23,044 nt of DNA. It comes from a virus. Lineage: Duplodnaviria > Heunggongvirae > Uroviricota > Caudoviricetes. Position numbers and translations under genes: made by a program. Positions 1 through 9,274 of the stretch are shown here, one piece after another (within the stretch, counting starts at the first letter, position 1; every line of letters starts with the position of its first letter). The notes below the pieces were generated by a model that was given only the letters and a program-made list of their open reading frames with translations, made no database searches and was not told the DNA's origin. The stretch lies in IMG/VR virus record IMGVR_UViG_2778261246_000008. The stretch is one strand, 5' to 3'.

Positions 1-975
1 TTACCCAGCAATAGGATTAAATCTCACCGCATCCTGCAAGTAATCCGGCGCAAGGTGGGCATAAATCATCGTTGTCTGAATCTTTGCGTGCCCCAGAATT
101 TTCTGGAGCGTCAGAATATTGCCGCCGTTCATCATGAAATGACTGGCGAAGGTGTGGCGCAGCGCATGAACAGCCTGGCCGTCAGGAACATCAGGTGCGA
201 CCGTTTTGATGACATCGCGAACCAATGGATAATCCAGCGTCGGAAACACCAGTTTCCCGCCCCGTTTTTTGATCTTTTCAAACAGGCTTTCAGAAATAGG
301 AACGGTACGGTTTTTGCTGTTCTTCGTTTTTGAAAAAGTGATTCGACAATGAAGAACACGGCGCTGCTCCAGTGCCGCTACCTCGCCCCATCGCGCCCCG
401 GTCGACAGAAGGATTTCGACAGCCAGCCGTTCATCGGGATTTTCAGCCAGTGCATCCAGCAACTGAACACATTCAGACTTACTCAGATATCCCATTTCGC
501 GCTCGTTAACCTTCATTCCTTTAAGGCCTTGAACGGGGTTATCGTTAAGAAAATGGCCGGATGAGATGAGTGCGGTAAACATCGCGCTTAACGCCCCAAT
601 CTCTCGATTTATGGTGCTGGGCTGTATCCCCTGCTCTATCCTGGACACACGTAGCTCGGTGAGCATCGTTGTATTAAGTTTATGCACGCACGGGTCATCC
701 ATTGCCTCACTCAAGCGCAGCAATTTAAGGCGCGTGTTATGCCCTGACTTCATTAGCTGGCCGTGGTATTTCCACCACAAGTCAATAAGCACTGACAGCG
801 GACGGCGATCAATGGAGTTTCCTTTCCACTCATTGTTATGCTGTTGCGCCAGCACCCACCGCTCATATAAAACTGCATCCGATTTCGTTTTAAATTTTTT
901 GCGAATGCGTTTGCCTTTACGCCCCTCAGGACGCATGTCAAGAAGATACCCTCCCGGAATTGATTTTATGCTCAT
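1..975 (-). CDS. int: Phage tyrosine integrase (P2 Int-like site-specific recombinase)
   Basis: The minus-strand ORF 1..1125 ends with a stop at 1-3. Its C-terminal half carries the tyrosine-recombinase signature (ARWGE...HALRHTFASHFMMNGG...LGH...TTMIYAH). I chose the internal start MSIKS (ATG at 975) because it gives a ~324-aa protein and avoids a 100-nt overlap with the upstream repressor gene; the N-terminus from there reads like P2 Int as I recall it. Confidence 0.9.
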   Translation of the reverse strand: MSIKSIPGGYLLDMRPEGRKGKRIRKKFKTKSDAVLYERWVLAQQHNNEWKGNSIDRRPLSVLIDLWWKYHGQLMKSGHNTRLKLLRLSEAMDDPCVHKLNTTMLTELRVSRIEQGIQPSTINREIGALSAMFTALISSGHFLNDNPVQGLKGMKVNEREMGYLSKSECVQLLDALAENPDERLAVEILLSTGARWGEVAALEQRRVLHCRITFSKTKNSKNRTVPISESLFEKIKKRGGKLVFPTLDYPLVRDVIKTVAPDVPDGQAVHALRHTFASHFMMNGGNILTLQKILGHAKIQTTMIYAHLAPDYLQDAVRFNPIAG

Positions 976-1024
976 TCGTGAAGCCCCAGCGTTACAAGAC
1001 CACCATGCCCCCAGCGTTCCATGA

Positions 1025-1336
1025 TTAGCCGGGCTGTGTGCCAGTCTTGCGGGATTTTTGAGAAGACGATGTGTTTTCTGGCCCATCAGGGGAGAGAGAA
1101 GGACTGATCTGCCCAGCAGCCTCATTTGTTTCGTTACTCATCAACCACGTAGTGTATTTTTTAAATTCCGGGTGCATTGTGATTTTCAGTAAAACCTCCG
1201 TTCCCACACCTCGAATACCAGTCTCGTATTGCTTAACCGTACCAACCGCAATACCTATTGAATCCGCGAACTTTGCCTGACTAAGCCCCTCAGATTCTCG
1301 AATTGCTTTTAGCTTCTTTGATATCTCTATTGACAT
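1025..1336 (-). CDS. C: Immunity repressor, HTH (XRE-like), P2 C-type
   Basis: Internal start MSIEISKKLKAIRESEGLSQAKFADSIGIAVGTVKQYETG within ORF 1025..1438 gives a ~103-aa protein with an N-terminal helix-turn-helix. It is transcribed divergently from the early operon and sits immediately upstream of int, as in the P2 C-int arrangement. Confidence 0.75.
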   Translation of the reverse strand: MSIEISKKLKAIRESEGLSQAKFADSIGIAVGTVKQYETGIRGVGTEVLLKITMHPEFKKYTTWLMSNETNEAAGQISPSLSPDGPENTSSSQKSRKTGTQPG

Positions 1337-1431
1337 GGTGTGCACCTGAATACTATATTGGTTATCAGTTGAGTACCACTTGACGCTACAAAGAGCCACA
1401 AATAGCACCAGATTGAATAGGTTATCACACC
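1330..1431. promoter_or_regulatory. Immunity switch region: candidate early rightward promoter (TTGACA 1330-1335, 18-nt spacer, TATATT 1354-1359) and direct-repeat operator candidates
   Basis: A sigma70-like -35/-10 pair is read directly on the + strand and overlaps the repressor start codon. The 8-bp direct repeat GGTTATCA occurs at 1360-1367 and 1420-1427 (extended 10/12 match atNGGTTATCA), flanking the putative early transcription start region. P2-type repressors bind direct repeats. Confidence 0.45.
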
Positions 1432-1710
1432 ATGGCAAAAGTCCTTAACACATACGAACAAGCGGATTTTGAGCGTTTGGCGGCGTTCTACCCATACCGT
1501 AATGAACATGGGCTACCGGTACTTGAAGAAAGCCTAGAGGATTATGCGAAACGCACAAATCAAAGCATTCTCGCTGTAAGAAGGCAGGCTGATAGATCGG
1601 TAATTCCCGTTACTCAAGAAGGAAGAAACACAAAACGCAAAGTAAATCTCTTCGCAATTTTCCTGAAAACCATCAGAAACGCAGAGAAATACGTGCAGAT
1701 GACAAAATAA
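1432..1710 (+). CDS. cox: Cox-like excisionase / early transcriptional regulator
   Basis: First gene of the rightward operon, divergent from the repressor. The segment DYAKRTNQSILAVRRQADRSVIPVTQEGR has the small winged-helix excisionase pattern and resembles the corresponding part of P2 Cox from memory. No obvious Shine-Dalgarno. Confidence 0.6.
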   Translation: MAKVLNTYEQADFERLAAFYPYRNEHGLPVLEESLEDYAKRTNQSILAVRRQADRSVIPVTQEGRNTKRKVNLFAIFLKTIRNAEKYVQMTK

Positions 1711-1724
1711 CGAGGTGTCATTTT

Positions 1725-2063
1725 ATGCTGAAGCAACGCCGTAATTTTTGTACCGGAACAGAACGCCACGCTAACCGTTTCACTACCAGTGCATCACGCA
1801 GCAACATCCGCTACAGCCTGAGTGATACACACGCAACGCCGGATGGCTACCCAGTAAAACAAATCGGCGAGCACGCCTGGCTGATTGAGAAAGCTGGAAT
1901 CGTGATCCACAAATGCCCACGCAATCCGTTTACCGGAAACCGCATTTTTGCACTGAGCTGTGGCGACAATCAGTTCGGGCAGGATTTCACATTATACGAA
2001 GCACTTCGCACGGTTGATCGTCTGCTTCGCGGGCAAAGTTTTATTAAACAGGCTGATTTATAA
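1725..2063 (+). CDS. Hypothetical early protein (Cys/His-containing, possible zinc-binding)
   Basis: ORF with a GAGGTG Shine-Dalgarno 8 nt upstream of the ATG and consistent codon usage, in the early operon between cox and A. No family recognised. Confidence 0.6.
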   Translation: MLKQRRNFCTGTERHANRFTTSASRSNIRYSLSDTHATPDGYPVKQIGEHAWLIEKAGIVIHKCPRNPFTGNRIFALSCGDNQFGQDFTLYEALRTVDRLLRGQSFIKQADL

Positions 2064-2073
2064 CAGGTGCTTT

Positions 2074-2361
2074 ATGACCAAAGACCATGCACAAGGTGTA
2101 TTTATCCGTTTTATTGATTTTCGCGGTGAACTGTTATTACGTGCATCCGCTATTGACGGAGTGACTCCGGCGGGTAAAAACGGAGCCGACGAAGCCACTT
2201 ACGTTTATCTGAACGGCACGCGACTGCTTGTGGAACTTCCGTACCAGACCGTACGAGAAATCATCAGCGAAGCTGAAAAGGCACGCCAGGTTAATGGCGA
2301 TGAACCCTATATCGAAATTATTTGTATGGATTCAGAGGCTGAAATACAGAAAGCAGATTAA
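2074..2361 (+). CDS. Hypothetical early protein
   Basis: Internal ATG at 2074 (MTKDHAQG...) within ORF 1960..2361, preceded by an AGGTG Shine-Dalgarno and starting 11 nt after the upstream stop. Confidence 0.55.
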   Translation: MTKDHAQGVFIRFIDFRGELLLRASAIDGVTPAGKNGADEATYVYLNGTRLLVELPYQTVREIISEAEKARQVNGDEPYIEIICMDSEAEIQKAD

Positions 2362-2372
2362 AGGGCGTTGTG

Positions 2373-2615
2373 ATGGGCAAAGAATATAAAACTCTCATTA
2401 ACAAAGCACTTGAGCGTTTTTATTTTCGCTTAAGTGCATCAGGCGCTCATGCTGAACGTGCGGCCCGTGACTCATTGACCAGAGCAATCCGAAGTCTGTA
2501 TGACGTGGCTTTTTACGCTGATGATCTGGATGCACTTAACGAACTTTCCGAGCTGATCTGTGCCGCAGAATGCGGGGAACATATTGAACCGTATAAGCTG
2601 GGAAATATCGCATGA
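2373..2615 (+). CDS. Hypothetical early protein
   Basis: ORF 2370..2615 with an ATG at 2373; tightly packed with its neighbours in the early operon. Confidence 0.55.
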   Translation: MGKEYKTLINKALERFYFRLSASGAHAERAARDSLTRAIRSLYDVAFYADDLDALNELSELICAAECGEHIEPYKLGNIA

Positions 2616-2725
2616 GTATATTTATTTCATGGCTTGTTCTGATTATTTCGGTGGTCTGCGCCATTGGGATTATGCGAATTATTAATTCAGTAAAAAAGAT
2701 TGAACGCTTTTTCACTGAAGAATAA
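2612..2725 (+). CDS. Small single-pass membrane peptide (37 aa), unannotated in the ORF track
   Basis: ATG at 2612 overlaps the upstream stop as ATGA. Hand translation gives MSIFISWLVLIISVVCAIGIMRIINSVKKIERFFTEE: a ~20-residue hydrophobic helix followed by a charged tail. Confidence 0.4.
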   Translation: MSIFISWLVLIISVVCAIGIMRIINSVKKIERFFTEE

Positions 2726-2811
2726 CCGCGCAAATAAGACCCCAGGTTAAATAAGAAAATGTGAAAACAATCCGCATTCGCGGAGGTATTCGCACACGCC
2801 AAGGAGGCGTA

Positions 2812-3015
2812 ATGGCAATTAAGCATTTTCCTGTCGTTCGTTTCACCTCCAGAGGACGTGAATACGAAGTTGACGAACGCCTGATTACCACAATCGACAA
2901 ACACCGTTCAGAAAAGGATGCACATCACATCTATCTCACTGACGGCACTTACTTCTGCGCCACCAACGTGGTGCAGGTGAATCTTATCAGACAGGTACAG
3001 GAGTCACGCAGATGA
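2812..3015 (+). CDS. Hypothetical early protein
   Basis: ATG at 2812 is preceded by a strong AAGGAGG Shine-Dalgarno (2801-2807). It lies in frame within ORF 2761..3015. Confidence 0.55.
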   Translation: MAIKHFPVVRFTSRGREYEVDERLITTIDKHRSEKDAHHIYLTDGTYFCATNVVQVNLIRQVQESRR

Positions 3016-3257
3016 CCATTCTGGACTACATCGCTGCCAATCCGGGTTGTAGCAGTGGAGAAATCGCCGCAGCACTGAATACACCAACCACAACCATTAA
3101 TGCGGAGCTACGCCGTCTCTGGCGCAGCGATTTAGTCACAAGAAAAGAGCGCAAAACAGGCGGTCGCTTTTCTTATCAGGTAAACCTGATGCCGTTTGGG
3201 TGTAGCAACCCACTAACCCAGATGTTCAACCAGCTACTGAGGGAAATCAGAGCATGA
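3012..3257 (+). CDS. Small winged-helix DNA-binding protein (putative regulator)
   Basis: ATGA overlap with the upstream gene and an AGGAG Shine-Dalgarno. The segment SSGEIAAALNTPTTTINAELRRLWRSDLV resembles a MarR/wHTH recognition helix-wing. Confidence 0.55.
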   Translation: MTILDYIAANPGCSSGEIAAALNTPTTTINAELRRLWRSDLVTRKERKTGGRFSYQVNLMPFGCSNPLTQMFNQLLREIRA

Positions 3258-3382
3258 GCACCTCCAACTGCCGGAAACCACGTCGGGCTTCAGCAGCTCA
3301 TCCGGCAGCAAAACAAACTCCATTAATTCCTGTTCCGGGCCTTTCCTGCACCTTGCGGCGGGAGGCCTTCGCACATCTGTAA
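3254..3382 (+). CDS. Possible small ORF (42 aa, basic/proline-rich)
   Basis: ATG at 3254 overlaps the upstream stop as ATGA, and GAGGGA lies 9 nt upstream. The ORF fills the gap before the next gene. Weak call because it is short and low-complexity. Confidence 0.2.
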   Translation: MSTSNCRKPRRASAAHPAAKQTPLIPVPGLSCTLRREAFAHL

Positions 3383-3398
3383 CAAGAGGATTGCCGCA

Positions 3399-3764
3399 AT
3401 GATTCTCGCCAACGACTTTCTTGAATACCTGCTCAACACAGAGCGTGATCTTGCCGCTCGCGTGCGTGATCGTTATGACATGTACCTGAAATCCCTGCCT
3501 GTACCGCAGCTCGCTGACGGAAAGATTGTTATTGATGGTCGCTACATGATTGACAGCCACGAGGGAAATTACAGGCTTTACCGCATTGAAGGTGGCACCC
3601 CGTCCGTTATTGGCATTTACCAGCGCCCATCCTCTGCAATCGTCGATGTGATTGCCGACAGCATCCGCATCACACATCGCCATGCCGACACAGAAGACAC
3701 CGTGCTGGAAATTCAGCGGCTGGCTACAGTCTGCCGCGACACCCTGAATGGCATGACGAAGTAA
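3399..3764 (+). CDS. Hypothetical early protein
   Basis: ORF with an AAGAGGA Shine-Dalgarno; immediately upstream of gene A. Confidence 0.6.
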   Translation: MILANDFLEYLLNTERDLAARVRDRYDMYLKSLPVPQLADGKIVIDGRYMIDSHEGNYRLYRIEGGTPSVIGIYQRPSSAIVDVIADSIRITHRHADTEDTVLEIQRLATVCRDTLNGMTK

Positions 3765-3770
3765 ATCACT

Positions 3771-6593
3771 ATGACGGCAGAGTACATCAGGGACTGGCAA
3801 CAACCGCGCCACGCAGTGGGGCGTGAAGGAACGGGGATCCCCGCTCCTGAATCCGCGCTTTCCTCCTGGCTGGATGCCTACCGGGTAGAGAACGAGCGCC
3901 GCCAGGAAATGGCTGATGCGGCCTTCTCCGCCACGCCACTGGGCAACCTGATTAATAAAAGCCTGGACGCACAGGAAAAACAGGACAAAACCATCACACT
4001 GGCAGGAGACGCCAGAAAACAGGCACGCGGCGCGGTGGATGAAGCCATGGCCTCGCTGCGCCTGCTGCCGTCCTATCTGCGCGATCCGCTTATTCGCCAC
4101 CTCTCCTTCCTGCGCAAAAAACAGGAAGCCGATCGCCGGAAAGGCAAAAAGAGCTGGCAGGCGGAACGCTATGCACGCGGAACCCTGCGCAAAATATTCG
4201 AACGTCTGGATCGCACTGACGGACACTGGCTGACACCGGGTTATCGCTCCCTTGCCGGACGCGAACGCCTGGACGATTTGCTTTACCTGCCGCAGCTCAA
4301 CAAACACCAGATACAGACGCTGGCCACCATGACGGCGGCGATGTTCAGCAGCACCTTCGAAAAACTCTGCGATGGCTTTGGCGCGACCGATGGCGAACTG
4401 ACCATGGATGTAACGCTGAAGGCGTATCAGATGCTGGCCCGCATGGCGTTACACCTGCACATCATGCCTCCACATTATGACGCACTGACAACAGATAAAG
4501 ACCGGAGGAACGAACCGGACACGGAGCTGCTGCCGGGCGCAATCCTTCGCCTGACCTGTGCGGAATGGTGGAAACGCAAACTGTGGCTGTTACGTTGCGA
4601 GTGGAGAGAAGAACAACTCCGCGCCGCCTGTCTGGTTTCCAGAAAAACATCACCCTATCTGAGCCAGGACGCGTTAAGCGAGTTTCGCGCACAGCGCGAG
4701 AAAACACGCGATTTCCTGAAAAGTTTCATGCTGGAAAACGAAGACGGGTTCACGATTGATCTCGAGACAGTGTATTACGCGGGAGTAAGTAACCCGGTTC
4801 ACCGTAAGGCAGAAATGATGGCCACCATGAAGGGGCTGGAACTTCTGGCCGAAGCCCGTGGCGACAAAGCGGTGTTTCTGACTGTCACCTGCCCGTCAAA
4901 ATACCACGCCACAACAGAGAACGGTCATCCGAATCCCAAATGGAACGGGGCCACCATGCGCGACTCCAGCGATTACCTAGTTAACACGTTTTTTGCAGCG
5001 GTCCGCAAGAAACTGAACCGCGACGGCCTGCGCTGGTATGGCATCCGCACGGTGGAGCCTCACCATGACGGCACCGTGCACTGGCATATGATGGTCTTTG
5101 CTCATCCGGAAGAAATCGACACCATTGTGTCCCACACCCGCGATATTGCCATTCAGGAAGATCGTCACGAGCTGGGTGATGATATTACCCCACGCTTTAA
5201 GGCGGAGTACGTCGACGGCTCAAAAGGCACGCCAACCAGCTACATCGCCACCTACATCGGAAAGAACCTGGACAGCCGCGCCGTGGATGGCATCGACCCG
5301 AAAACGGGCAAGCCACGCGTTGACCACGAAACAGGTAAATCAATGGCCGAGAGCGTGGAGCGCGCCATCGGCTGGGCGCGCCTTCACCGGGTCCGCCAGT
5401 TCCAGTTCTTTGGCATCCCCTCCCGTCAGGTGTGGCGTGAACTCCGCCGCCTTGCCAGCCAGATGGCACGCAACCCGGAAGGCCCGCAACGGCTGAAGGA
5501 TGACGCAATGGATGCGGTACTCGCTGCCGCTGATGCCGGATGTTTTGCCACCTACATTGAAAAACAGGGTGGCGTACTTGTTCCGCGCAAGGACTACCTG
5601 ATTCGCACAGCCTACGACCTCGCAGATGAGCTGAACGATTACGGCGAACAGAGTGTACAGATTTACGGGATCTGGTCGCCATTCATCGGGGAATCCTCCC
5701 GTGTGTGCACGCATCCGGATAACTGGAAGCTGGTAAGACGTAAACCGGAAGCGGAAGACAGCGCCCGCGAAAATGGTTTTGACCTTCAGGGCGGCCCTGC
5801 CGCCCCTTGGACTCGTGGCAATAACTGTCCCCGTGTACAGGAAACGGACAACAACGGGACAGAACAGCCGGAAGAACGGCCAGCACCGTGGCCGCAGCTC
5901 CCTGATGGCGTTGAAGTGAACGAATGGATGCGCTCACTGAAACGACACGAACGCCGGGCGCTGATGCGTTCGCTTCGTGACAAACAGGCAAAAAACAGCA
6001 GCGATGAAATGCAGAGCTGGACACAGAGCCGCAAACAGCCACGGCCTTTGCCTGATAACCACGAATTACTCGCTAAAGAATGGCGGGAGTCTGCTGAATC
6101 TCTCGGCCTGCATATCGGTGAACAACAGATGCAGCACCTGTTACGGGGCGGCAGTCTGTACGTTGACGGCAGCATCATTGCACCGCAGGGATTTGAAATT
6201 GTACGCAAACCGGATACCCGCCCGGACAGCCGAATCACGCAGCTCTGGCAGCGCCTGAGCCGTAATCATGGCGTAAGCAGCACGGAGATCCGCCATAACC
6301 CGGTCGCCAGCTATCTGGCACAGCTGGGGGCATCAGACCCTGAAGCCGCCGCACGCCTGGCATCCACACTTCAGCAGGACCAGAACACCATGAAAACACC
6401 CGTTACCGTGCTTTCTGACATGCTGCGCGCCATCCGCGACGCAGAGCACGCACAGAGAATCAGTGAAACCACTGAACGCGCCAGCCGCAAAGCAGACCTG
6501 CTGCGGGGTGGCATGACCAGTGGAAACAAAAAACAGACAGAAACGGGATTCACAAATCCCATAAATGAGCAAAAAACGTGCCGCGATATATGA
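3771..6593 (+). CDS. A: Rolling-circle replication initiator / endonuclease, P2 gpA family
   Basis: 940-aa ORF with the HUH metal-binding motif (TVHWHMMVF) and the paired catalytic tyrosines (TSYIATYIGKN) typical of P2 A-type initiators. Position after the early small genes matches P2. Confidence 0.9.
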   Translation: MTAEYIRDWQQPRHAVGREGTGIPAPESALSSWLDAYRVENERRQEMADAAFSATPLGNLINKSLDAQEKQDKTITLAGDARKQARGAVDEAMASLRLLPSYLRDPLIRHLSFLRKKQEADRRKGKKSWQAERYARGTLRKIFERLDRTDGHWLTPGYRSLAGRERLDDLLYLPQLNKHQIQTLATMTAAMFSSTFEKLCDGFGATDGELTMDVTLKAYQMLARMALHLHIMPPHYDALTTDKDRRNEPDTELLPGAILRLTCAEWWKRKLWLLRCEWREEQLRAACLVSRKTSPYLSQDALSEFRAQREKTRDFLKSFMLENEDGFTIDLETVYYAGVSNPVHRKAEMMATMKGLELLAEARGDKAVFLTVTCPSKYHATTENGHPNPKWNGATMRDSSDYLVNTFFAAVRKKLNRDGLRWYGIRTVEPHHDGTVHWHMMVFAHPEEIDTIVSHTRDIAIQEDRHELGDDITPRFKAEYVDGSKGTPTSYIATYIGKNLDSRAVDGIDPKTGKPRVDHETGKSMAESVERAIGWARLHRVRQFQFFGIPSRQVWRELRRLASQMARNPEGPQRLKDDAMDAVLAAADAGCFATYIEKQGGVLVPRKDYLIRTAYDLADELNDYGEQSVQIYGIWSPFIGESSRVCTHPDNWKLVRRKPEAEDSARENGFDLQGGPAAPWTRGNNCPRVQETDNNGTEQPEERPAPWPQLPDGVEVNEWMRSLKRHERRALMRSLRDKQAKNSSDEMQSWTQSRKQPRPLPDNHELLAKEWRESAESLGLHIGEQQMQHLLRGGSLYVDGSIIAPQGFEIVRKPDTRPDSRITQLWQRLSRNHGVSSTEIRHNPVASYLAQLGASDPEAAARLASTLQQDQNTMKTPVTVLSDMLRAIRDAEHAQRISETTERASRKADLLRGGMTSGNKKQTETGFTNPINEQKTCRDI

Positions 6594-6669: not shown

Positions 6670-7629
6670 ATGAAAATTTGTATCGACGACGGCTCCACCA
6701 ACATCAAGCTGGCATGGACTGAGAACGGCGAACGCCGCAACGCCATCAGCCCGAACAGCTTCAAGTCGGAATGGTCTGCGCCGTTCGGTGGCTCGCAGCC
6801 CGCGAACTACATGCTTGATGGCGTGCGCTATGGTTTTGATCCGGTCAGCGATCGCTTTGTCCAGACGACCGACACGCAATACCAGTACAGCGATGTGAAT
6901 GTCATTGCCATTCATCACGCGCTGGTCAAATCAGGCATCACGCCACAGGAGGTGGATGTGGTTGTCACCCTGCCATTGAGCGAGTATTTCGACACAAACG
7001 CACAGCCGGACATGGCCAACATCAGCCGCAAAAAAGCGAACGTTATGCGCCCGGTGGAGTACCAGAACGGCGAAACATTCACTATCCGTAACGTACGGGT
7101 TATGCCTGAATCCATTCCGGCTGGCTTTAAGGCACTGGCTGACATGAGTCCGTTTGAATCCCTGCTGATTGTGGATTTGGGCGGAACCACTCTGGATGTG
7201 GCAAAGGTTCAGGGGCAACTGGCAGGTATCAGCCAGGTGTTTTGCGATCCACACGTAGGCGTTTCTCTGATGGCCGATGCCGTACTGTCGGTGATGGCCA
7301 CTAACGGTATGCGCACCAGTCACCACATCGCCAATACCATTATCGAACATCGCCATAATGAAGCCTGGCTGCGCCAGCACATCCACAATGACGCGCATTA
7401 CGCCAGCCTGATGGCGATTATTCGTGAAAAGGAAGAAACACTGAAACAACGCGTGATCCGCGCGCTGGCGGGTTTTTCGGGTTACGGGCGGGTGATGGTT
7501 GTCGGTGGCGGGGCGGAGATTGTGGCACCCGCTATCCGCGAAGCCTGCGGAGTTAATGCGACTTTCATCGCGGACGGGGTGCCACAGTTTGCTCTGGTTA
7601 ATGGGCTGTACGCAATGGACAAGGAGTAA
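6670..7629 (+). CDS. parM: Actin-like ATPase of the ParM/StbA family
   Basis: The N-terminus MKICIDDGSTNIKL, plus SPNSFK, YSDVNVIAIHHAL, VMPESIPAG, LLIVDLGGTTLD and VVGGGAE, line up with the phosphate-1, connect and adenosine motifs of plasmid R1 ParM as recalled. AAGGA Shine-Dalgarno upstream. Confidence 0.85.
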   Translation: MKICIDDGSTNIKLAWTENGERRNAISPNSFKSEWSAPFGGSQPANYMLDGVRYGFDPVSDRFVQTTDTQYQYSDVNVIAIHHALVKSGITPQEVDVVVTLPLSEYFDTNAQPDMANISRKKANVMRPVEYQNGETFTIRNVRVMPESIPAGFKALADMSPFESLLIVDLGGTTLDVAKVQGQLAGISQVFCDPHVGVSLMADAVLSVMATNGMRTSHHIANTIIEHRHNEAWLRQHIHNDAHYASLMAIIREKEETLKQRVIRALAGFSGYGRVMVVGGGAEIVAPAIREACGVNATFIADGVPQFALVNGLYAMDKE

Positions 7630-7633
7630 ACCA

Positions 7634-7945
7634 ATGACGACACCAACCAGACGGATAAGTTTCTATCTGAAGCCCGCCGCCGTCAAGAACGAAGGTGAAG
7701 CATGCGCCTGGCTGGACAGCCTTACACCAGAAGCGCGCAAAAGCGGCCAACGCGTGGCTTTTCTGGCCGGGCTGGCACTTCTGAAAATGAATCCGGCAGA
7801 GGCTTACCGACTGGCTGCATGGGCTGATGATGAAGCGTTATCAGTGACACAAACCAGGACAGAACGCCCCGCGTCACAGCCAGTATCAACCGCACAGATA
7901 ACCAGTCAGATGGCTGGAAATATCCGGGCGTTATTTCCCGAATAA
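7634..7945 (+). CDS. parR: ParR/StbB-like adaptor, probable ribbon-helix-helix DNA-binding protein
   Basis: Immediately downstream of parM with an AAGGAG Shine-Dalgarno. RISFYLKPAAV...AFLAGLALL...IRALFPE parallels the R1 ParR pattern from memory. Size (103 aa) and position fit the family. Confidence 0.6.
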   Translation: MTTPTRRISFYLKPAAVKNEGEACAWLDSLTPEARKSGQRVAFLAGLALLKMNPAEAYRLAAWADDEALSVTQTRTERPASQPVSTAQITSQMAGNIRALFPE

Positions 7946-8008: not shown

Positions 8009-8344
8009 ATGCAACGCATTGACAGAGAAAAAGCGCAGCGACTGATTGAGCGGATGGAAGCGCTGGCGAAAGAAGAAAATGTCAACATCCAAAAAATAGC
8101 TGAATGTGGCCAGATAGTTCTTCGTCGTGAAAAAGACCTCAAACAACTGATGTCTGGCGAAACCAGCAAAACATGGACTTCAGGTGAGGAGACGATTTAT
8201 TGCAGCTTCTGCAATAAATCCCAGTACGAAGTCACAAAGGTGATTGCCGGACCGTCTGTTTACATCTGCAATGAGTGCGTTGATTTGTGCAATGAAGTTA
8301 TCAGGAGAGAAGTGACAGACCATGAAGAAAAAACGCATGAATGA
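8009..8344 (+). CDS. Stand-alone ClpX zinc-binding-domain-like protein (C4 zinc ribbon) with an unrelated N-terminal helical extension
   Basis: The C-terminal segment [40 protein letters not shown] is near-colinear with the N-terminal zinc-binding domain of bacterial ClpX (CSFC...CxxC), but there is no AAA+ module. AGGGGGA Shine-Dalgarno. Confidence 0.8.
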
Positions 8345-8510
8345 CGAATTTGACGGCTTTTAATTTTATCGGGGCGCACTGTCGCCCTGCATGGAGAAAA
8401 ACAATAAAAAAGATGAATAACTGCTCATGTCAGACGCGCTGCGGGCAAGTCTGGCACCCTGCCCTGTCTCCGCAAAGGCTGTTGTCTTAACACGACAGAG
8501 TATGCCAGCA

Positions 8511-8918
8511 TTAAATATAATCTTCTTCGTAGTCGCTGATTAATTCATTGCCATAATCAGACAGCAATTTCAAAGCAAAGGTAACTTCCTCAAGGGTAGC
8601 TATCCCCATTGCTGAAAACACCGTTAATTTAACCAGCAGCAGGGAGTTTGAAAGTTCGGAAGAGTTCATCATTAAAAATATTGATGCAGCCTGAAAAGCT
8701 GTGCGTTTATTCCCATCATGAAAGGCATGAGCCTTGGCTATACCAATCAAATACATAGCAGCCAGAGCATGAATATCATCAACCCCTTCATAGTAGTGTA
8801 GTGTCCTGACGCGATTTAAAGCACCTTCAAGTAGCCCGTCATTGGCATTTCCGCTCTGGGGTAAAGTTTCAGCATGGATACGTTCTACTTGTTCTTTTGA
8901 CAAAAACACTATGTCCAT
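8511..8918 (-). CDS. doc: Doc-family toxin (Fic/Doc fold)
   Basis: Contains the Fic/Doc motif HAFHDGNKRTA. Its start overlaps the stop of the upstream antitoxin gene as ATGA on the minus strand. AT-rich relative to the phage backbone. Confidence 0.85.
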   Translation of the reverse strand: MDIVFLSKEQVERIHAETLPQSGNANDGLLEGALNRVRTLHYYEGVDDIHALAAMYLIGIAKAHAFHDGNKRTAFQAASIFLMMNSSELSNSLLLVKLTVFSAMGIATLEEVTFALKLLSDYGNELISDYEEDYI

Positions 8919-9274
8919 CAGTTATCCTCAAGCTTTTTAATGATATCCGCATGTTTTTCTCTTGTACGCTTCATTGCATCTTCAAAAGACAATCCTTTTT
9001 TTCTCTGTGCGACAAGAGCTGGATGACGTTTTTCCAGATCTCTCACTGCATTTATTAAGAGTGGTTGCTTCATTTTGTTTATTTGATCCCGCAGTTTTTT
9101 GGTTTTGCCAAGGACAGCCCGTATTTCAGGACTAAGATCAGAACCAGCAAGAACAACATCCTTCCCTCCCTGCGCCGTGATAACGACACTGCCACCGGAA
9201 GAAAGGTAATCCAGAATTTCACTCAGGTTCTCACGAAATTCATCATCAGTTACAGTTTTCATATTCATTTCCAT
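8918..9274 (-). CDS. phd: Phd/YefM-family antitoxin
   Basis: Small acidic protein immediately upstream of doc and translationally coupled to it. The N-terminus (KTVTDDEFRENLSEILDYL) fits the Phd/YefM pattern. The true start may be one of the internal ATGs (MEMNMK). Confidence 0.7.
   Translation of the reverse strand: MEMNMKTVTDDEFRENLSEILDYLSSGGSVVITAQGGKDVVLAGSDLSPEIRAVLGKTKKLRDQINKMKQPLLINAVRDLEKRHPALVAQRKKGLSFEDAMKRTREKHADIIKKLEDN

Follow-up and report, generated by a model that had tools for sequence, protein, structure and literature searches.

What does a P2-family prophage encode between its cox-like gene and its replication gene A, and what could the products do? The question is raised by positions 1725–3764 of the IMG/VR virus record IMGVR_UViG_2778261246_000008, a stretch of 23,044 nucleotides (nt) that we refer to as the window. 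This interval is the cox-to-A part of the early operon of a P88-like prophage (Xuanwuvirus, Peduoviridae; P2 family). The original prediction, made from the letters of the DNA, had described it as a block of six to eight small uncharacterised early genes. We find seven, named here p112, p95, p80, p37, p67, p81, and p121. They are genuine, conserved, and functionally unstudied, but they are ordinary and already filed as domains of unknown function (DUFs) or PHROG families. With somewhat better than even confidence we regard the interval as the conserved core of the early (Pe) operon, whose products would be non-structural, lineage-restricted accessory early proteins, with p121 coupled to A. Nothing in the evidence indicates a new kind of system. 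The features of the region are the following (aa, amino acids; pN/pS, ratio of nonsynonymous to synonymous polymorphism; ORF, open reading frame):

1330–1359, + strand: candidate early promoter (Pe-like), TTGACA, 18 nt and TATATT, between the repressor gene and the cox-like gene
1432–1710, + strand: cox-like gene, 92 aa, first gene of the early operon; phrog_11533, pN/pS 0.12
1725–2063, + strand: p112, DUF4761, 112 aa
2074–2361, + strand: p95, phrog_3800, 95 aa
2373–2615, + strand: p80, DUF4754, 80 aa
2612–2725, + strand: p37, putative membrane peptide of 37 aa
2726–2811, + strand: conserved 86-nt spacer, empty cargo site 2
2812–3015, + strand: p67, phrog_3459, 67 aa
3012–3257, + strand: p81, winged helix, 81 aa
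3258–3398, + strand: deletion scar, empty cargo site 3; holds ORF 3254–3382 and an 'ash family' remnant (3283–3402)
3399–3764, + strand: p121, phrog_3237, 121 aa
3771–6593, + strand: A, rolling-circle replication initiator, 940 aa; Pfam Phage_GPA 439.9 bits, RefSeq 'replication endonuclease'

The coding status of the small ORFs was assessed with alleles from 18–80 related IMG/VR loci per gene. All seven genes have pN/pS values of 0.08–0.37 in the annotated frame, against 0.6–2.4 in the other two frames. The counts sum alleles against one reference and hence are not independent, yet the contrast between the frames is clear. All seven are real genes, and purifying selection acts on them. We considered the alternative that some of the small ORFs are chance frames within an untranslated leader of A. 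The shortness of p37, which has no PHROG family and is missing from some annotations, would speak for this, as does an ORF in the block that is indeed spurious. The frame contrast refutes the explanation for the seven, all of which are moreover kept as ORFs in distant loci, and we regard it as scarcely credible.

The spurious frame is the eighth ORF (3254–3382, 42 aa), which shows no selection signal and is an artefact of a deletion junction. The left flank of the scar at 3258–3398 aligns with P88 3524–3587 and the right flank with P88 5470–5636, so that a clean deletion of about 1.9 kb relative to P88 (locus L002 3587–5470) is apparent. The deleted genes are an ead/Ea22-like gene, a membrane protein gene, a lipoprotein gene, and a derepression gene; 54 of the 80 related loci carry the last of these (Pfam PF25738 in relatives), which the window has lost. 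The 'ash' pseudogene fragment of RefSeq also belongs to the scar. With the eighth ORF falls the Cys/His-rich protein that had been announced for the block: the ORF with 10% cysteine plus histidine is this junction artefact, and the real genes reach 7% at most, the highest contents being 6–7% in p112 and p67. No conserved Cys/His metal site was found in the real genes. In DUF4761 homologues Y, G, N, S, I, or R stands in place of the three cysteines of p112, and of the Cys/His residues only His36, His50, and His62 are nearly invariant.

The layout of the block suggests one operon. In a consensus scan the site at 1330–1359 matched 11 of 12 consensus positions, and its location corresponds to that of Pe in P2 and pR in 186, from which we infer its role as early promoter. 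The cox-like gene, p112, p95, and p80 are separated by 10–14 nt, p121 ends 6 nt before A, and ATGA stop/start overlaps join p80 to p37 (2612–2615) and p67 to p81 (3012–3015); the earlier statement that several of the genes are tightly coupled is thereby borne out. The consensus scan gave no convincing + strand terminator in the block, the matches to internal promoters or terminators were at chance level only, and an Rfam scan of 1000–4000 found nothing. Since there is one strong promoter-like site and no convincing terminator, and in view of the gene spacing, a single early transcript from cox to A appears likely. The cox-like gene itself gives a weak Cox-like match (phrog_575, E 0.008) and a Smith–Waterman score of 49 with P2 Cox, shuffled sequences scoring 22 ± 3.9. 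The G+C content is 0.44–0.47 from cox to p67, 0.53–0.56 around p81 and p121, and 0.55–0.61 in A, a shift that suggests separate histories for the two halves of the operon.

How far these genes were already on record can be read from existing annotation. Positions 1400–3800 recur at 100% identity in the E. coli 1303 chromosome, in a prophage that adjoins btuC. Of 5426 complete E. coli genomes, 1410 (about 26%) contain related DNA, and in 935 of the 1410 (about 17% of the 5426) at least 80% of the query is covered. The nearest phage records, at 88–97% identity, are Xuanwuvirus P88, P884B11, 520873, and 503458. RefSeq lists in order an integrase, a helix–turn–helix (HTH) repressor, a hypothetical protein at the position of cox, DUF4761, a hypothetical protein, DUF4754, a 37-aa hypothetical protein, a hypothetical protein, a MarR-family regulator, the 'ash family' pseudogene fragment, a hypothetical protein, and the replication endonuclease. 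In P88, gp04–gp09 and gp15 are the same genes in the same order at 88–92% DNA identity, annotated as DUF4761, hypothetical, DUF4754, membrane protein, hypothetical, winged helix, and hypothetical, followed by the replication endonuclease. P88 differs from the window in another cox allele and in about 1.9 kb of cargo between the winged-helix gene and the p121 homologue, which is deleted in the window. Given the RefSeq annotation and the same order in P88, our finding concerns already catalogued sequences. Pfam (DUF4761 and DUF4754), five PHROG families, and RefSeq WP_ entries list the genes, and consequently they are uncharacterised but not unknown. In the PHROG scan the other proteins fell into families of unknown function, and p37 into none.

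The protein families of the block are restricted to a few Enterobacteriaceae, the named sources being Escherichia, Shigella, Salmonella, Citrobacter, Cronobacter, and Hafnia. An alignment scan for DUF4761 across 185,579 species-representative genomes returned 3 loci, in Salmonella enterica, in E. albertii, and in a contig labelled Vagococcus. This last contig (L167, NZ_JBQPOM010000071.1, labelled Vagococcus sp. WN89Y) carries a DUF4761 gene of 83% identity; a contamination or a mislabelled enterobacterial assembly is the most likely reason for its Gram-positive label.

The arrangement of the region among relatives was mapped by placing the window genes on 80 related IMG/VR loci. The genes p112, p95, p80, and p37 are contiguous in all mapped loci, p67 and p81 wherever both were detected, and p121 and A in all but three of the 80. 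The DNA around these groups is variable at three sites. The first is located between the repressor gene and p112; here the immunity cassette is replaced in its entirety, and some loci hold 0.4–2 kb of extra genes. The int–C–cox cassette (window 1–1710 compared with L005–L084) is exchanged as a unit beside near-identical early regions: int is either about 100% or 42–48% identical, and in the latter loci C is 34–46% identical and cox undetectable. At the second site, between p37 and p67, the distance is about 87 nt in 36 loci (window included), about 530 nt in 33, and the cargo of other loci measures 350–850 nt; a split alignment with L059 places the insertion near 2801, just upstream of the Shine–Dalgarno sequence of p67. 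At the third site, between p81 and p121, about 142 nt were found in 18 loci, about 900 nt in 32, and about 2000 nt in 17. Both the second and the third site lie inside 1725–3764 and are empty in the window. Recurrent cargo includes Ea22-like, derepression, membrane, Band-7-like lipoprotein, and coiled-coil proteins. According to a 2026 survey, the stretch from int to gpA in P2-like prophages is a lesser hotspot for defence systems, home to 8% of them (PMC13586616).

More distant prophages, in which p80 is about 40% identical, carry in this order cox, DUF4761, DUF4754, a membrane peptide of 41 aa, a p67-like gene, a pre-A gene of 137–138 aa, and A; they can lack p95 or p81. The isolated phage Chuche is without p81, and its relative of the pre-A gene has 129 aa. 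The block is a fixed core between three variable cargo sites.

We then compared the block with the early genes of P2 and 186. In P2 the genes from cox to A are orf78, B, orf80 (DUF2732), orf81 (DUF5405), orf82 (DksA/TraR zinc finger), and orf83 (DUF5405); in 186 the early genes comprise cII, fil, dhr, and CP80–CP84, of which CP80–CP84 are annotated as not essential. That no protein of the block is recognisable as B was confirmed: pairwise, profile, and whole-library HMMER comparisons were negative, and tblastn found no B in Xuanwuvirus. The tblastn search with P2 B gave 82 phage records, none of them Xuanwuvirus or P88, so the absence of B here is unremarkable. The block has in common with gpB only the map position between cox and A, whereas gpB, a replication protein for lagging-strand synthesis, is without a homologue in the window. 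The protein p80 was tried as a shortened B, as it aligns with B 115–155 at 29% identity over 45 aa (pairwise Smith–Waterman z about 4.9). This similarity drops to an hhalign probability of 0.4% once homologues of about 40% identity to p80 are added, and none of the 21 HMMER matches to p80 in 1.84 billion representatives resembles the 166-aa B; the candidate was rejected.

The original prediction can be read as also leaving the block without counterparts of orf80–orf83. This stands for Orf80 and Orf82: no window protein matched PF10809 (DUF2732; P2 Orf80 and 186 CP80) or PF01258 (DksA/TraR; P2 Orf82 and 186 CP81) at E <= 0.1, and the P2 Orf80 and Orf82 proteins themselves match these families. 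It does not stand for p121, which we read as a divergent member of DUF5405, the family of Orf81 and Orf83. Across the homology searches p121 is the only link to the P2 orf80–orf83 set; B, Orf78, Orf80, and Orf82 were not matched. As for 186, none of the window proteins matched the Pfam families of CII (Phage_CP76) or Fil (Phage_186_Fil) or gave a Pfam match to Dhr, and comparison of CII, Fil, and Dhr with the window proteins gave Smith–Waterman scores no better than shuffles and hhalign probabilities below 1%. The window resembles 186 in its run of small packed genes between an excisionase-like gene and A, several of them annotated in 186 as non-essential, and in a last gene before A that is annotated there as translationally coupled to A. 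It differs in that its block has no sequence relation to that of 186 except DUF5405 and contains no DksA-like zinc finger, no DnaQ-like exonuclease, and no PAPS-reductase-like gene.

Among p112, p95, p80, p67, p81, and p121 there could nevertheless be a replication-accessory set that replaces P2 B, for example a non-homologous recruiter of DnaB or a factor associated with the origin or with A. The genes occupy the cox-to-A position of P2 B and are inherited together with A, and p121 appears coupled to A, as part of a family whose members always lie a short way before A. Viral replacement of helicase loaders by non-homologous proteins is documented elsewhere (PMC11087808). These points have to be set against the lack of any detectable similarity to B, which occurs in P2-type records only and in no Xuanwuvirus, against the early region of 186, which does without B and whose DUF5405 gene is annotated as not essential, and against the absence of p81 and p95 from some relatives, including that of p81 from the isolated phage Chuche. 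We therefore consider such a set unlikely.

The assignment of p121 was built up at the level of the family. The protein itself scores 13.9 bits with Pfam PF17399 (DUF5405; E 0.074), below the gathering cut-off of 21.6. A homologue of 72% identity (P0136) reaches 26.5 bits, residues 43–117 aligning with profile positions 8–85 of 88, and four further homologues have DUF5405 as their only family match (15.7–18.4 bits, E 0.003–0.02). An hhalign comparison of the p121 family, whose alignment took in the 137–138 aa relatives from distant loci, with an alignment of P2 Orf81, P2 Orf83, and 186 CP83 gave a probability of 77% (E 2e-5); with P2 Orf83 alone it gave 60% over 76 columns. Because of these family-level matches and the common position directly before A, we read p121 as a divergent DUF5405 protein with about 40 extra N-terminal residues, which would be a new remote family link. 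The P2 and 186 members have 91–100 aa against the 121 aa of p121, and P2 carries two copies where the window carries one. In the 80 loci p121 is 97–100% identical (pN/pS 0.13); a word-indexed search returned 35 clusters.

Like P2 Orf83, p121 is encoded directly upstream of A. In P2, orf83 and A overlap; in 186, one gene separates CP83 from A; and in L171, L172, and Chuche the pre-A gene either touches A or runs into it. According to the 186 annotation, orf84 apparently has to be translated to its end if A is to be translated. The start of A in the window is weakly signalled, and translational coupling of p121 and A is proposed by analogy, because the same coupling is recorded for orf84 and A of 186. 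A of the window has 940 aa and a Phage_GPA domain that comprises residues 179–503 only; the coordinates in the P2 and 186 records give 761 aa and 694 aa, respectively, for the A proteins of these phages.

The winged HTH protein that had been noted in the block is p81, which exceeds the Pfam cut-offs with both MarR_2 (32.8 bits, cut-off 27) and HTH_24 (30.7 bits, cut-off 21.9), the match covering residues 2–52. MarR proteins have about 140–150 aa, with N- and C-terminal helices that form the dimer interface and the ligand pocket. With 81 aa p81 shares the MarR_2/HTH_24 winged-helix core and has little beyond it, lacking the flanking helices for dimer and ligand pocket; correspondingly phrog_1687 (162 aa) matches p81 through its positions 69–149 only. 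As a bare winged-helix domain p81 is most likely a small DNA-binding regulator. A sequence search of the PDB found no close solved-structure relative of it. Its pN/pS is 0.37, and two allele classes occur. No p81 match was obtained in L005, L068, L071, and L076, and no 81-aa homologue was found in L171 or in Chuche; p81 is dispensable in at least one viable relative, namely Chuche.

The profile phrog_19053 (246 aa) matches both p67 (84–135) and p81 (162–243), as if the two were fused. A natural fusion of p67 and p81 was considered as evidence for their coupling and was abandoned: no fused gene occurs in the records checked, and in distant loci the genes are separate or the pair is lacking. In the annotation of phage 520873 the winged-helix gene is listed separately and p67 is not annotated. 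The profile may be derived from mis-called ORFs.

A DNA-binding fold in an early operon would suit a regulator of the lysis–lysogeny decision like CII of 186, with p112 or p81 controlling the establishment of lysogeny or the timing of early and late functions. Besides the fold of p81, the place of p112 speaks for this, as it is in the slot after cox/apl that is held by cII in 186. An immunity-specific activator should co-vary with its target, however, and the block remains unchanged beside unrelated immunity cassettes, which makes this role unlikely. Further, there is no match to Phage_CP76, the CII family, and p81 is absent from some relatives. Taken together we judge such a regulator quite improbable.

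The first gene of the block, p112, matches PF15958 (DUF4761) with 225.4 bits, above the gathering cut-off and with residues 8–112 on profile positions 1–105 of 105. A word-indexed search returned 154 clusters, with at least 67% identity among the matches listed. Its AlphaFold2 model (mean predicted local distance difference test score, pLDDT, 72.9) has a confident core of five strands and a C-terminal helix. The basic N-terminus of about 25 residues is highly conserved in sequence, yet residues 1–24 are predicted to be disordered.

For p95 (107 clusters in the word-indexed search) AlphaFold2 predicted a beta sandwich, a long helix, and a short strand (pLDDT 81.1, predicted template modelling score 0.73); the protein carries an acidic tail. 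A Foldseek search of BFVD gave weak matches to uncharacterised small phage proteins (E 5e-4 to 5e-2). Some of these bear the name 'Flagellar and swarming motility protein' (E 8e-3 to 5e-2, template modelling score about 0.45–0.5). All these structural scores are under reliable thresholds, and p95 has no Pfam FlbD match at E <= 0.1. For both p95 and p67 an FlbD-like identity was thus kept as a resemblance only. Neither was it retained that p95 and p67 are paralogues, for the motif common to them by eye gave a profile match of just 10% in hhalign (E 0.003). At the 3' end of p95 (window 2228–2389) the +1 frame is open for 51–58 codons even in genes with the acidic tail. The homologues P0187, P0199, P0207, P0227, and P0243 enter this frame at differing positions and end in a basic tail ...MNPISKLFVWIQKLKYRKQIKGRCDGQRI in place of the acidic one. 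Programmed frameshifting was considered and rejected: the alternative tail is found in 2 of 72 loci only, and indel variants are probably the simpler account.

The protein p80 matches PF15946 (DUF4754) over its whole length (181.7 bits, 1–80 on 1–80 of 80, above the gathering score) and has a pN/pS of 0.08; from its sequence it looks helical. The exhaustive HMMER search mentioned above gave its 21 representatives at E <= 1e-3, and the distant full-length ones have 80–81 aa. Its neighbour p37 is predicted to be a single-pass membrane peptide with a hydrophobic part at about residues 3–22 and a charged C-terminal tail, in line with the label 'membrane protein' in P88. With a pN/pS of 0.29, p37 is still conserved where p80 is about 40% identical (phmmer E 1e-12 to 1e-16) and there is better conserved than p80.

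For p67 the match to phrog_3459 is strong (E 1.3e-45), pN/pS is 0.10, and a strong Shine–Dalgarno sequence, AAGGAGG, precedes the gene. Divergent homologues of 71–72 aa are present in L171, L172, and L173. The spacer between p37 and p67 (2726–2811) is 93–94% identical to that of other loci and folds into two hairpins, one of which covers the Shine–Dalgarno sequence of p67 (minimum free energy −25.8 kcal/mol, z −3.1).

Searches for function gave little for any of these proteins. Sequence searches of the PDB with p112, p95, p80, p67, p81, p121, and P2 Orf81 returned nothing significant, and no confident structural neighbour was found for the AlphaFold models of p112 or p95. PADLOC defence profiles gave weak partial matches only (a generic HTH for p81; a partial match for p80, E 0.012). 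Altogether PADLOC, PHROGs, NCBIfam, PDB sequence searches, and two structure searches yielded no functional match for the block proteins.

These results bear on the idea that the block is a module for host takeover or anti-defence, in which p112, p95, p80, p37, or p67 would inhibit a host process early, as Fil and Dhr of 186 do; division, replication, RecBCD, or a defence system are the processes that come into question. The early position and small size of the genes would suit such a role by analogy with 186, but the proteins show no similarity to Fil or Dhr. In addition, these genes belong to what is invariant in the region and not to its variable cargo, whereas anti-defence genes are described as fast-diversifying, and of 8165 P2-like prophages surveyed with DefenseFinder only 28 carried known anti-defence genes (PMC13586616). 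We regard host takeover or anti-defence as possible and rather doubtful.

We return to the accessory early operon as the preferred reading. On derepression or infection one transcript would start from about 1330–1359 and run through cox, p112, p95, p80, p37, p67, p81, p121, and A, and the short spacers and the two ATGA overlaps would couple translation. DNA binding would most likely be the task of p81. The protein p121 would act mainly with or through A, and its translation would probably bring ribosomes to the weak start of A, as is recorded for orf84 and A of 186. Since p112, p95, p80, and p67 are too small for enzymes and have no detectable enzyme relatives, they would most likely act by binding to partners from the host or the phage at an early point of the lytic cycle. 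In the absence of B, DnaB would probably be loaded by the host loader. Phage 186 is likewise without B; for DnaB it depends on the loader of the host, and it uses host DnaA and DnaC.

Several points weigh against this reading. The mechanistic part draws on position, size, and analogy, and the operon structure on consensus scans. The near-100% conservation of p80 and p121 in most loci would fit an essential phage function as well. The link of p121 to DUF5405 is remote, its own Pfam score being under the cut-off and the hhalign probabilities 60–77%. The absence of fold matches is weak evidence, because the input alignments for AlphaFold were shallow (18–23 sequences at at least 53% identity). 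Finally, a functional study of any of the seven proteins was not found in the literature searched.

A more far-reaching proposal concerns the genes that travel together. DUF4761, DUF4754, and the membrane peptide of 37–41 aa stay together even where DUF4754 is about 40% identical. Tentatively, and with much less confidence than the accessory operon, these three and the p67-like protein might form an unrecognised module, either a B-independent replication helper or a membrane device for host shutoff or anti-defence. In its first form the module could bring the host replication machinery to the origin nicked by A. If the module exists, two Pfam DUFs found in about a quarter of complete E. coli genomes would obtain a function.

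Whatever the roles of the seven genes, by their position they are expressed at the first step of the lytic cycle, in a prophage type of about 26% of complete E. coli genomes. P2 and 186 are as yet the only members of the P2 family for which this biology has been elucidated. This gap would be filled by the roles of the block genes, that is, by their dispensability, their contacts with host replication, division, or defence, and the control of A by DUF5405. What the analysis provides in practice is a clean gene list without one spurious ORF, the link of p121 to DUF5405, and a map of fixed and cargo DNA from int to A.

Some observations were made downstream of A. Directly 3' of A, at 6670–7945 (+ strand), the window encodes a ParM-type actin-like ATPase, which matches StbA_N (274 bits) and the C-terminal domain of ParM, together with a ParR/StbB-like protein of the Plasmid_stab_B family. 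The pair makes up a partition module of plasmid type within an integrating P2-family prophage; neither a ParM-type ATPase nor a Plasmid_stab_B protein is present in the P2 and 186 records examined. The gpA–gpQ hotspot follows at 8009–9274. On the + strand it encodes a protein of 111 aa that has a C4 zinc finger of the ClpX type (8009–8344), and on the − strand a Phd/Doc-like toxin–antitoxin pair (Fic/DOC 8511–8918, Phd_YefM 8918–9274). Unlike the window, E. coli 1303 carries a TOPRIM protein and a hypothetical protein of 399 aa at this hotspot, so that beyond A the window does not derive from this strain.

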